Positions 33,668 through 33,790 of a stretch of DNA of 64,000 bases are shown piece by piece. The notes beneath the pieces are model-generated. The model was not told where the DNA came from, ran no database searches, and was given only the letters and a program-made list of their open reading frames with translations. Source of the stretch: Escherichia coli (GTDB lineage: Bacteria > Pseudomonadota > Gammaproteobacteria > Enterobacterales > Enterobacteriaceae). Where the stretch lies: assembly GCF_003334335.1 (NCBI RefSeq), contig NZ_QOWQ01000008.1; one strand, 5' to 3'. Position 1 is the first letter of the stretch; the number at the start of each line of letters is the position of its first letter. Made by a program: the position numbers and the translations under genes.

Positions 33668-33712
33668 CGTAGGCCGGATAAGATGCGCCAGCATCGCATC
33701 CGGCGATGCTGG
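33668..33712. repeat. REP element downstream of frlR
   Basis: gccggataagatgcgccagcatcgcatccggc with flanking gatgctggcgc repeats. Confidence 0.7.
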
Positions 33713-33730
33713 CGCGTTGAATTTTACATC

Positions 33731-33790
33731 CCGTACGTTCCCCTCACCCTAACCCTCTCCCCAAAGGGGCGAGGGGACCGTTCAGTACGG
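33731..33790. repeat. GC-rich palindromic intergenic repeat
   Basis: ccgtacg...ccctcaccctaaccctctcccc aaa ggggcgagggg ...cagtacgg: outer ccgtac/gtacgg and inner ccctc-gcccc/ggggcgaggg inverted repeats. Confidence 0.5.

Follow-up and report, generated by a model that had tools for sequence, protein, structure and literature searches.

Two independent repeats, a single REP and a BoxC (PIT/TMECO) element, in the frlR-yhfS spacer of Escherichia coli

Introduction

REP clusters (BIMEs) are reported to bind gyrase, IHF and Pol I, and the 5' GTAG tetranucleotide of the REP is used by RAYT transposases. The consensus given by Stern et al. in 1984 reportedly consists of the head GCCGGATG and the tail CTTATCCGGCCTAC with a GTAG end. 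The roles described for these elements include mRNA stabilisation, attenuation and, when the REP lies within 15 nt of the stop codon, ribosome stalling; REP325 and its RNA product naRNA4 act in nucleoid condensation (PMC12306157).

The BoxC repeat of Bachellier, the PIT element (Hoyne and Maher 2000, 2002) and the TMECO are the same family (PMC4666352). The K-12 catalogue of Holder et al. (2015, NAR 43:10126) contains 23 copies. In that work type A 'mm' oligonucleotides were studied by CD and NMR, and the control was the very 36-mer of the frlR-yhfS copy, altered by four G-to-C changes. For the full oligonucleotide a quadruplex could be excluded by NMR, and a stable triplex could not be detected in vivo by DMS footprinting. 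The TMECOs were not associated with transposons, phages or plasmids, and the variability around their sites was raised; PIT/BoxC elements showed neither promoter nor terminator activity in the published reporter assays summarised there (PMC4666352). Our search of the later literature for a function of TMECO/BoxC gave nothing beyond Holder et al. 2015.

Here we describe the spacer between frlR and yhfS in a stretch of 64,000 nucleotides of E. coli DNA (contig NZ_QOWQ01000008.1), referred to as the window. An initial annotation had placed a REP and a GC-rich palindrome at this convergence point.

Results

At this locus the window and E. coli K-12 MG1655 have the same sequence, and the NC_000913.3 position is obtained by adding 3,471,117 to the window coordinate. 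The stretch 33640-33830, which covers the spacer and both gene ends, showed 100% identity with MG1655. The flanking genes had been correctly named frlR and yhfS, as the MG1655 annotation and this identity bear out, and the two converge. The TAA stop codon of frlR occupies 33664-33666, and the spacer of 151 bp contains two elements, a REP and a BoxC (Table 1). The stable folding proposed for the spacer was recovered: the 161-nt fold gave z = -6.3 on the plus strand and z = -5.4 on the minus strand, none of the 200 shuffled sequences folded as well, and each of the two elements gave a stable fold. The spacer had also been presented as the junction of two convergent catabolic operons. This stands for frlABCDR, which is a known catabolic operon, but the operon structure of yhfS is marked 'no exp. 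evidence' in the table of Holder et al. The first BLAST matches suggested an IS1 adjoining the spacer; in strains B, BL21 and C this IS1 in fact lies within yhfS and outside the spacer.

Table 1. Features of the frlR-yhfS region in window coordinates
Feature	Position	Strand	Description
frlR CDS	32935..33666	+	last gene of frlABCDR; b3375, 3504052-3504783 (MG1655 annotation); ORF list
Single REP	33669..33704	+	GTAGGCCGGATAAGATGCGCCAGCATCGCATCCGGC; direct reading, inverted repeat, head-motif enrichment, copies elsewhere
REP own stem	33673-33704	+	GCCGGAT../..ATCCGGC; inverted repeat
Extended hairpin using the REP 3' half (predicted)	33682..33718	+	arms 33685-33697 / 33703-33715, loop ATCCG
T-rich tract	33719..33729	+	GAATTTTACAT; directly 3' of the extended hairpin
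Full BoxC, about 69 bp	33727..33795	-	three-block core with flanks conserved in the family, which make up an imperfect outer inverted repeat
Outer stem, left arm	33731..33736		CCGTAC; pairs with 33785-33790
BoxC/PIT/TMECO core	33740..33775	-	CCCTCGCCCC TTT GGGGAGAGGG TTA GGGTGAGGGG; type A, one mismatched triad
Second G-block	33740..33749	-	GGGTGAGGGG; would supply the third strand when the triplex forms in vitro; alternatively pairs with the C-block (G-T wobble) to make the long hairpin
First G-block	33753..33762	-	GGGGAGAGGG; Watson-Crick partner of the C-block, one G:A mismatch
C-block	33766..33775	-	minus-strand reading CCCTCGCCCC, plus-strand reading GGGGCGAGGG
Outer stem, right arm	33785..33790		GTACGG; inverted-repeat analysis
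yhfS CDS	33818..34903	-	convergent with frlR; stop at 33818; MG1655 annotation and ORF list
Published Rho termination region	33855 (MG1655 3,504,972)	+	antisense to yhfS; Adams et al. 2021, Supplementary file 2

The canonical REP noted just after frlR is indeed present at 33669-33704, beginning 3 nt past the stop codon, with its stem 7 nt past it. The head GCCGGATG and the tail CTTATCCGGCCTAC are both exact when the minus strand of this segment is read, and the GTAG end is there as well. The 14-mer of the head, GTAGGCCGGATAAG, occurred three times in the window at no more than two mismatches, against 0.22 expected. The arms of the REP inverted repeat are 14 nt long and 86% complementary, and the REP folded alone gave an RNA hairpin of -22.2 kcal/mol. 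An 86-nt query centred on the REP matched a median of 5 places per genome (megablast); in genomes that carry no frl locus the best match was confined to the REP (40-43 nt, 97-100% identity). Comparison of 33000-34500 with Rfam at E <=10 gave no match on the BoxC, only noise from eukaryotic miRNA/snoRNA families and a hit on the REP to naRNA4 (RF02564, a REP-derived family). This hit scored 31.7 bits on the minus and 24.3 bits on the plus strand, below the gathering threshold of 59.5, and it reflects REP similarity only. In 33600-33900 a second REP could not be found, so the locus is no BIME, a cluster of at least two REPs with alternating orientation and defined linkers. A true two-REP cluster is located at 41394-41483 of the window.

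A perfect inverted repeat of 13 bp, GCGCCAGCATCGC/GCGATGCTGGCGC (33685-33715, 100% complementary), overlaps the 3' half of the REP. Counting G-U and A-U pairs, the stem of the extended hairpin reaches 16 bp. Its RNA MFE was -33.4 kcal/mol compared with -22.2 kcal/mol for the REP alone, and its DNA folds gave z = -5.6 and -5.9. In the K-12 allele the extended hairpin is thus the predicted dominant fold, one that would out-compete the normal REP stem. The O157 allele has two mismatches in the extended repeat and folds as a plain REP hairpin of -24.4 kcal/mol. Taken together, the extended hairpin and the T-rich tract behind it resemble a weak intrinsic terminator in the frlR sense (plus strand). 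They formed the sole site in a terminator consensus scan of 33400-34100, where one site was found and 0.7 were expected by chance. The K-12-type REP may have been turned into this terminator-like perfect hairpin by palindrome-templated mutation, which would have moved the structure away from the frlR stop. The initial annotation had missed this repeat, as well as the third block and the BoxC/PIT/TMECO identity of the second element.

The transcript ends were compared with published data. The Term-seq of Adams et al. 2021 contains no 3' end in frlA, frlD, frlR, yhfS or yhfT; the cultures, in LB or M63 glucose, had received no fructoselysine. Since frl was probably little expressed in such cultures, the missing 3' ends are weak evidence. 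The only entry of that work for these genes is a Rho termination region past the spacer (reads 55/33 in the untreated and 66/144 in the bicyclomycin sample; Rho score 3.64, p = 1.3e-6), the position of which is coarse as the scores come from 800-nt windows. A promoter-like site is present at 33799-33826, and a spurious antisense transcript that begins at this site might account for the Rho region instead.

The nested inverted repeats described for the second element were recovered, the inner one at 33753-33776 and the outer one at 33731-33736/33785-33790. The inner repeat is formed by CCCTCTCCCC (33753-33762) and GGGGCGAGGG(G) (33766-33776), and with a third block, CCCCTCACCC at 33740-33749, the palindrome becomes a three-block C-G-G triplex motif. 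The 36-nt core, read on the minus strand from 33775 to 33740, is CCCTCGCCCCTTTGGGGAGAGGGTTAGGGTGAGGGG, which fits the published consensus 5'-CCCTCNCCC N3-6 GGGNGAGGG N3 GGGNGAGGG-3' (PMC4666352). A 24-nt core of the element is unique in the window, with none expected (100 shuffles). The core is the TMECO no. 15 of Holder et al. 2015 (3,504,892-3,504,857, antisense, frlR-yhfS, type A, one mismatch), matching it in all 36 nt and, once 3,471,117 is added, in its coordinates. In the catalogue this core is identical to those of no. 7 and no. 11, and its distances according to the supplement are 73 nt to frlR and 41 nt to yhfS (PMC4666352). Judged by its sequence, the spacer element is a BoxC, this exact copy of which was already catalogued in 2015, and the finding is in this respect a known one.

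In an alignment of 13 K-12 type-A copies, read along the core strand, the similarity reached some 20 nt ahead of the C-block and some 14 nt beyond the last G-block. The family flanks seen in this conservation profile, ..CCGTACTGAACGGTC before and GAACGTACGGG after the core, are present at the frlR-yhfS copy, and form an outer imperfect palindrome, as in the BoxC first described (roughly 56 bp). As regards the triplex, 9 of the 10 purine-motif triads in the core are canonical (G.G-C or T.A-T), and the G-rich strand also carries a textbook G-quadruplex motif, GGGG-AGA-GGG-TTA-GGG-TGA-GGGG. The RNA fold of the element was -27.3 kcal/mol on the plus and -34.2 kcal/mol on the minus strand. When the full element was folded as DNA and as RNA, the C-block paired with the second G-block, and the outer arms paired too. 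This long-hairpin model was not supported by covariation between the two blocks at the free positions of 145 Mitsuaria copies (Fisher p = 0.056, in the opposite direction).

Further copies of the second element, for which the initial annotation had proposed a search, do exist: in 5,426 complete E. coli genomes the number of places matched by the 70-nt BoxC ranged from 1 to 33 per genome, with a median of 17, and only 51 of the 87,519 matches were on plasmids. The present copy lies between two stop codons, and all 12 other K-12 loci examined were intergenic too, including positions between tandem genes within operons (pstA-pstB, yihS-yihR). The orientation relative to the genes had no bias among the K-12 copies, in agreement with the published surveys (PMC4666352). 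At aaeR/tldD and zntA/tusA the BoxC was present in 5,416 and 5,149 of the 5,426 genomes, respectively, with small indels only, and no clean empty site was found among these genomes at either locus. A target-site duplication was not visible around the K-12 copies; the BoxC loci checked thus display neither the target-site duplication nor the precise presence/absence that define a MITE. A scan of the GTDB species genomes with the TMECO pattern gave at least 120 stretches, and among the matches listed all taxa were non-enteric. Besides E. coli, the betaproteobacterium Mitsuaria (at least 145 copies) and one metagenome-assembled genome each of Contendobacter and Methylomirabilota have these three blocks. 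At the nominally free positions all four agree in their bases (T/G in the C-block, A in the first and T/A in the second G-block), and the flanks are lineage-specific.

The REP and the BoxC had been regarded as parts of a composite element. This could not be upheld: a REP within 200 nt was found at only 3 of the 13 K-12 BoxC loci, the present one included, the spacing between REP and BoxC varied among the three, and in one of them the relative orientation was reversed. The two are independent repeat families that share a spacer without forming a composite unit.

The locus is carried by roughly 3,200 genomes, and strains differ at it. In strain NA3664 a 52-nt deletion with a 2-nt GA microhomology takes out most of the BoxC. 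The left arm of the outer stem reads CCGCAC in TB06051 and O157 and CCGTGC in NIST0056, and the right arm of TB06051 is GTGCGG, so that its two arms together show a compensatory T-A to C-G change; one further change between alleles is G-T-compatible. The compensatory change rests on three alleles, and intrastrand template switching could yield the same without selection. The gene order in O157:H7 is frlR-REP-BoxC-trpS, with yhfS to yhfZ entirely absent, while frlABCDR, the REP and the BoxC are all absent from B2 and ST131 strains. The spacer is thus the boundary of two gene cassettes, frlABCDR and yhfS-yhfZ, that vary independently among the E. coli lineages, and the locus agrees with the raised variability that Holder et al. 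2015 reported around TMECO sites (PMC4666352).

Discussion

In our opinion the spacer probably holds two unrelated repeats in a tolerant position, where the REP hairpin would protect or end the frl mRNA and the BoxC, having no dedicated function, would mark a variable junction. In the frl mRNA the REP region would form a very stable hairpin, which in the K-12 allele would be the 16-bp extended hairpin of 33682-33718 followed by GAAUUUUACAU. Such a hairpin would block 3'-to-5' exonucleases in the manner of other REPs and so set and stabilise the 3' end of the operon. A stabilising role is known for REPs in general (PMC12306157), and by analogy the frlR REP probably shares it. The hairpin may add partial intrinsic termination, and transcription that reads through would be halted by Rho in the first part of the antisense yhfS. 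Since the REP stem lies 7 nt past the frlR stop, this REP belongs to those (up to 15 nt) reported to stall terminating ribosomes; the K-12 extended hairpin, starting 16 nt past the stop, would compete with this stalling. The BoxC would be an old, vertically inherited, structure-prone repeat, tolerated where the spacer is otherwise unconstrained and most likely without a dedicated function. Its consequences would be mainly mutational: a hairpin or triplex in the single-stranded DNA of replication could give rise to local deletions and palindrome-templated changes, so that the repeat would mark a junction of structural variation between strains.

Alternatively, the REP and the BoxC together could be a bidirectional transcription terminator that parts two convergent operons, a reading we consider rather unlikely. 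There are three strong GC-rich hairpins between the convergent genes, and on the plus strand the extended hairpin with GAAUUUUACAU was the sole scan site of 33400-34100. But that single site is close to the 0.7 expected by chance, the BoxC is not followed by a U-tract on either strand, and on the minus strand only AUCUUAUCC follows the REP hairpin. Term-seq 3' ends are not reported at the spacer, the Rho region just downstream on the plus strand fits read-through across it, and the published assays of PIT/BoxC were negative for termination (PMC4666352). Moreover, the copies within pstA-pstB and yihS-yihR, where a strong terminator would be harmful, count against such a role. The terminator function that the initial annotation had allowed for the palindrome is therefore not sustained for the BoxC, the Term-seq part of the argument being weak. 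The Rho region might also be read in another way: the frlR-sense BoxC RNA, C-rich and G-poor at 33730-33765, would serve as a rut site, and Rho would end the frl transcript about 90-120 nt downstream. The plus-strand RNA has two C-blocks and one G-block, which leaves at least one C-rich block unpaired, and the bicyclomycin-sensitive region at 33855 is at a plausible distance. We judge this quite improbable, since the region is coarse with low read counts (55/33 vs 66/144) and RNA polymerase was unaffected in the published assays (PMC4666352); besides, the unbiased orientation of the BoxC with respect to transcription means that a strand-specific RNA role cannot account for the family.

The multi-copy, intergenic nature of both repeats, the terminal inverted repeats in the BoxC flanks and the 5' GTAG of the REP would suit non-autonomous mobile elements, MITE-like or moved by RAYT, that were recently inserted as selfish DNA; the core in distant phyla would also be hard to explain without horizontal spread. 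Against this, two other loci are near-universal in the 5,426 genomes without a clean empty site, the sole BoxC-less allele at our locus is the partial 52-nt deletion and not a precise excision, no target-site duplication is visible in the K-12 copies, plasmid matches are few (51 of 87,519), and Holder et al. 2015 saw no association with transposons, phages or plasmids (PMC4666352). A recent insertion is thus improbable. Binding of proteins, with the elements as nucleoid-organising sites (gyrase, IHF or HU on the REP, or a factor that reads the BoxC core, triplex or G-quadruplex), is the reading to which we give very little credence. It could draw on the part of REP325/naRNA4 in nucleoid condensation (PMC12306157), on the G-quadruplex motif of the G-rich strand and on an almost invariant core with the same free bases in E. 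coli, Mitsuaria, Methylomirabilota and Contendobacter. The REP is single, with no BIME, and its naRNA4 score is 31.7 bits against 59.5; a BoxC-binding protein was absent from the literature searched, the quadruplex was excluded by NMR and the triplex was unseen by in vivo footprinting (PMC4666352).

The near-invariant 36-nt core and the same free bases in distant phyla suggest either a sequence-specific constraint or a spreading mechanism. That the core is a cross-phylum, sequence-specific signal, read by some factor or spread by some mechanism, appears improbable to us; if true, the BoxC core would not be neutral junk. The lack of function proposed for the BoxC sits poorly with the near-invariance of the core.

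As a discovery the spacer carries little weight, both repeat families being known since the 1980s and 1990s. The value is in the annotation: the assignment explains why the frlR/yhfS spacer is so strongly structured and cautions against calling a BoxC a terminator. What the locus tells about the role of BoxC is anecdotal: an allele in which part of the element is deleted, a single compensatory change in the stem and the position at a cassette boundary.

Compared with intrinsic terminators, the bidirectional ones included, the plus strand of 33682-33729 is alike in having a GC-rich hairpin followed by a T-rich tract between convergent genes. It is unlike them in that the tract is short and interrupted, the stem is unusually long, and the minus strand has no tract and the site no mapped 3' end. 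With the MITE-like repeats (ERIC/IRU, RSA, YPAL) the BoxC shares its short, intergenic, imperfectly palindromic and multi-copy character, but it is much shorter, its target-site duplications or empty sites were not seen, and its conserved part is an asymmetric three-block motif instead of terminal inverted repeats alone. The REP agrees with the REP or palindromic unit (Higgins 1982; Stern 1984; Gilson 1984) in head, tail, imperfect palindrome, position just 3' of a stop codon and multiple copies. It differs in being single, outside any BIME cluster, and in that, in the K-12, A and B1-type allele, a perfect inverted repeat of 13 bp has taken up its 3' half. Within the BoxC family, the copy stands single, outside the five inverted pairs of type A and type B, and the outer arms of the K-12 allele are GTAC, whereas the consensus and the O157 and TB06051 alleles have GCAC/GTGC; in every essential respect it is a BoxC like the others.

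Two known repeats at the frlR/yhfS junction

The 151 bp spacer between the convergent genes frlR and yhfS contains both repeats. Taken with both gene ends (33640-33830), its sequence matches that of E. coli K-12 MG1655 at 100% identity (window coordinate + 3,471,117 = NC_000913.3 coordinate). All the features described in the initial annotation could be found at the locus. The head motif of the repetitive extragenic palindrome (REP) is over-represented in the window (3 matches, 0.22 expected), and the spacer was predicted to fold much more stably than its shuffles (z = -6.3 and -5.4 for the two strands; 0 of 200 shuffles as good).

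Features of the frlR/yhfS junction and the yhfZ/trpS spacer in window coordinates
Feature	Position	Strand	Remark
frlR stop codon TAA	33664-33666	+	last gene of frlABCDR
REP, GTAGGCCGGATAAGATGCGCCAGCATCGCATCCGGC	33669-33704		head and tail both exact to the conserved form
Ordinary REP stem	33673-33704		
Extended hairpin	33682-33718		16 bp, predicted
Inverted repeat GCGCCAGCATCGC-atccg-GCGATGCTGGCGC	33685-33715		13 bp, perfect
BoxC, full extent	~33727-33795		
Outer repeat CCGTAC / GTACGG	33731-33736 / 33785-33790		
Third block, CCCCTCACCC TAA	33740-33752		left of the inner repeat
TMECO no. 15	33775-33740	antisense	3,504,892-3,504,857 in K-12
Inner repeat CCCTCTCCCC / GGGGCGAGGGG	33753-33762 / 33766-33776		nested in the outer repeat
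Sigma-70-like TTGACG-16-AATACT	33799-33826	+	directed into antisense yhfS
yhfS	33818-34903	-	convergent with frlR
Two-REP cluster (BIME)	41394-41483		yhfZ/trpS spacer

The second element has a third block, overlooked in the initial annotation. Its minus-strand core reads CCCTCGCCCC-TTT-GGGGAGAGGG-TTA-GGGTGAGGGG, i.e. one C-block and two G-blocks, and fits the published consensus 5'-CCCTCNCCC N3-6 GGGNGAGGG N3 GGGNGAGGG-3'. The 24-nt core occurs once in the window, none being expected by chance. Each of the 5,426 complete E. coli genomes carries the 70-nt element, at 1-33 places (median 17). With further copies and a stable fold, the element contradicts the refuting condition of the initial annotation on both points. 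The same sequence is no. 15 (type A, one mismatched triad) of the 23 TMECO motifs of MG1655 (Table 1, Holder et al. 2015, PMC4666352), for which the supplement gives frlR at 73 nt and yhfS at 41 nt; TMECO is equated there with the 'BoxC' repeat of the 1990s and the 'PIT' elements of Hoyne and Maher. A separate survey also counts BoxC as a known stem-loop family of E. coli (22 copies found vs 32 copies of 56 bp in earlier literature, PMC2267715).

For K-12, 12 other loci with 15 further copies were compared. In the alignment of 13 type-A copies, including the one at frlR/yhfS, similarity extended about 20 nt 5' of the C-block (..aaa..GyGCAC..ggaCgGTC) and about 14 nt past the last G-block (GAAcAGgCc.GCAc), the left and right flanks being roughly mutual reverse complements. 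Since these flanks are conserved, the outer repeat belongs to the family architecture.

A REP was found within 200 nt at just 3 of the 13 K-12 BoxC loci, frlR/yhfS, fimH/gntP and pstB/pstA. The two elements are 32, 24 and 44 nt apart, respectively, and at pstB/pstA they are oriented the other way to each other. Their co-occurrence is sufficiently explained by the preference of both families for spacers at gene 3' ends. The initial interpretation is thus partly supported: the REP and a structured, multi-copy element beside it stand, while the terms 'composite', and 'terminator' for BoxC, find no support.

Structure of BoxC

The BoxC RNA folded on both strands (-27.3 kcal/mol on plus, -34.2 kcal/mol on minus). 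The main partner of the C-block in the predicted fold is the distal G-block; the outer arms close the stem, and the proximal G-block forms a loop. As an alternative to the hairpin, the core has 9 of 10 canonical purine-motif triads of the published intrastrand triplex; formally, its G-rich strand also qualifies as a G-quadruplex motif. Inside the canonical four-tract motif, on the minus strand at 33740-33762 in the predicted yhfS 3' UTR, lies GGGTTAGGG, the repeat unit of vertebrate telomeres. For the full oligonucleotide NMR ruled out the quadruplex, while the triplex went undetected in DMS footprinting in vivo (Holder et al., PMC4666352). No covariation favouring the long hairpin was seen between the C-block and the second G-block in 145 Mitsuaria copies.

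The 3' end of the frl transcript

The perfect inverted repeat, unremarked in the initial annotation, takes in the 3' half of the REP and is followed by GAATTTTACAT. In the K-12 frlR 3' region the extended hairpin (-33.4 kcal/mol) was predicted in place of the ordinary REP stem (-22.2 kcal/mol, RNA folded alone). The O157:H7 allele has 2 mismatches in the extension and a plain REP hairpin as predicted fold (-24.4 kcal/mol); that of TB06051 is intermediate (-27.8 kcal/mol). REPs are reported to shield upstream mRNA from 3' exonucleases and to attenuate transcription, and those at most 15 nt from a stop codon to cause ribosome stalling (summarized in PMC12306157). The REP stem starts 7 nt and the K-12 extended hairpin 16 nt from the frlR stop. 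The T-rich tract 3' of the extended hairpin makes a weak plus-strand terminator-like site, the sole one in the scan (33400-34100) and no more than chance. The true REP cluster (BIME) in the yhfZ/trpS spacer, GCCTGATGCGCTACGCTTATCAGGCCTAC and GTAGGCCGGATAAGGCGTTCACGCCGCATCCGGC in opposite orientations, sits downstream of a terminator-like hairpin, AAAAAACCGGGTTTCCCCGGTTT.

BoxC finds no support as the terminator: it has no U-tract here, BoxC/PIT elements acted neither as promoters nor as terminators in published assays and left RNA polymerase unaffected (summarized in PMC4666352), and copies lie also between tandem genes of operons (pstA-pstB, yihS-yihR). No orientation bias was found among the K-12 copies examined. 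Term-seq (Adams et al. 2021; LB or M63 glucose, no fructoselysine) gave no 3' end in frlA, frlD, frlR, yhfS or yhfT; as the cultures were without fructoselysine, frl was probably little expressed. From bicyclomycin treatment the same study reports Rho termination around 3,504,972 (+), which is window 33855, with a Rho score of 3.64 (p = 1.3e-6); the position is coarse because the scores span 800-nt windows. This would indicate that plus-strand transcription through the spacer is halted by Rho just inside antisense yhfS. The sigma-70-like site about 30 nt upstream could be another source of the signal; site and region together point to Rho silencing of a spurious antisense transcript.

The best-supported joint reading is that the REP-derived hairpin would set and stabilise the 3' end of the frl mRNA, backed up by Rho, while BoxC would be a functionally silent, structure-prone marker of a structurally variable junction.

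Variation of the locus among E. coli strains

The frlR-REP spacer was found in about 3,200 of 5,426 genomes, most with the exact K-12 allele and a minority with an O157-like allele (94% identity). The outer stem of BoxC, CCGTAC/GTACGG in K-12 vs CCGCAC/GTGCGG in TB06051, shows a compensatory T-A to C-G change, and NIST0056 (CCGTGC/GTACGG) retains a G-T pair; three alleles are too few to separate selection from palindrome-templated repair. A 52-nt deletion in strain NA3664 (~33719-33770), at a 2-nt GA microhomology, has removed most of BoxC and left the REP intact. Immediately right of BoxC, TB06051 and NA3664 (L007, L008) carry 8 nt, TTGCCGAA, missing from K-12 (window 33796-33803).

In O157:H7 the trpS stop codon directly abuts frlR-REP-BoxC (L004, strain F7349, 3168-3297; window 33782-41516), all eight genes yhfS-yhfT-yhfU-php-yhfW-yhfX-yhfY-yhfZ being absent. 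The B2, ST131 and M18 strains lack frlABCDR, REP and BoxC (L005, L006 2895-3001; window ~28570-33817), and ~40 nt or less separate the yhfL terminator from the yhfS stop codon. The spacer is therefore the hinge of two independently variable cassettes. This is consistent with the finding of Holder et al. (PMC4666352) that local variability is statistically associated with TMECO sites, but does not show that the variability is caused by BoxC. Both cassette boundaries coincide precisely with stop codons of genes that are kept, and frlD of F7349 is annotated as a pseudogene with an internal stop.

In AST19 a 44-nt insertion at the yhfS 3' end (L002 1340-1443; window 33849-33896), shifts the reading frame of yhfS. 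It is made up of CGCAGCACCGTCTCTTCACCGC in inverted form and then the TGCGATTCGGGTTAATGCGAATCGCA hairpin in direct orientation, and has the look of template switching at a quasi-palindrome. IS1A splits yhfS into two pseudogene fragments in E. coli C (L003), B, BL21, C43 and BLR; an IS1 in the spacer itself was rejected, the insertion in the B and C lineages being inside yhfS.

Distribution and comparison with known elements

BoxC was present at aaeR/tldD in 5,416 and at zntA/tusA in 5,149 of 5,426 genomes, with small indels only and no clean empty site at either locus. This pattern makes BoxC look old and vertically inherited, not recently mobile. Plasmids carry 51 of the 87,519 places (e.g. 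NZ_CP074792.1, 1627-1664), which qualifies the published claim that the motif is not found associated with plasmids.

One genome per species was scanned with the TMECO pattern with three free positions (L010-L129). The matches listed come from Mitsuaria chitosanitabida, a Methylomirabilota MAG, a Contendobacter MAG and one unclassified MAG. Among them the free positions are alike in all groups (C-block T or G, first G-block A, second mostly T) and the flanks are lineage-specific, Mitsuaria keeping only CT 5' and TCTTCGGGC 3' of the core. M. chitosanitabida has at least 145 distinct copies, often ~10 nt past a TGA stop codon. In the Methylomirabilota MAG the cores, among the matches listed, often form inverted pairs, as the type A + type B pairs of E. 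coli. A wide distribution (>260 genomes) was reported earlier, and 3,610 TMECO sequences were counted in 262 proteobacterial genomes (Holder et al., PMC4666352). Of all these points, only the strong conservation of the core holds real promise of novelty.

The initial observation is confirmed for two elements that are both already known, this BoxC copy being individually catalogued; it differs from the BoxC family in having GTAC where the family has GCAC.
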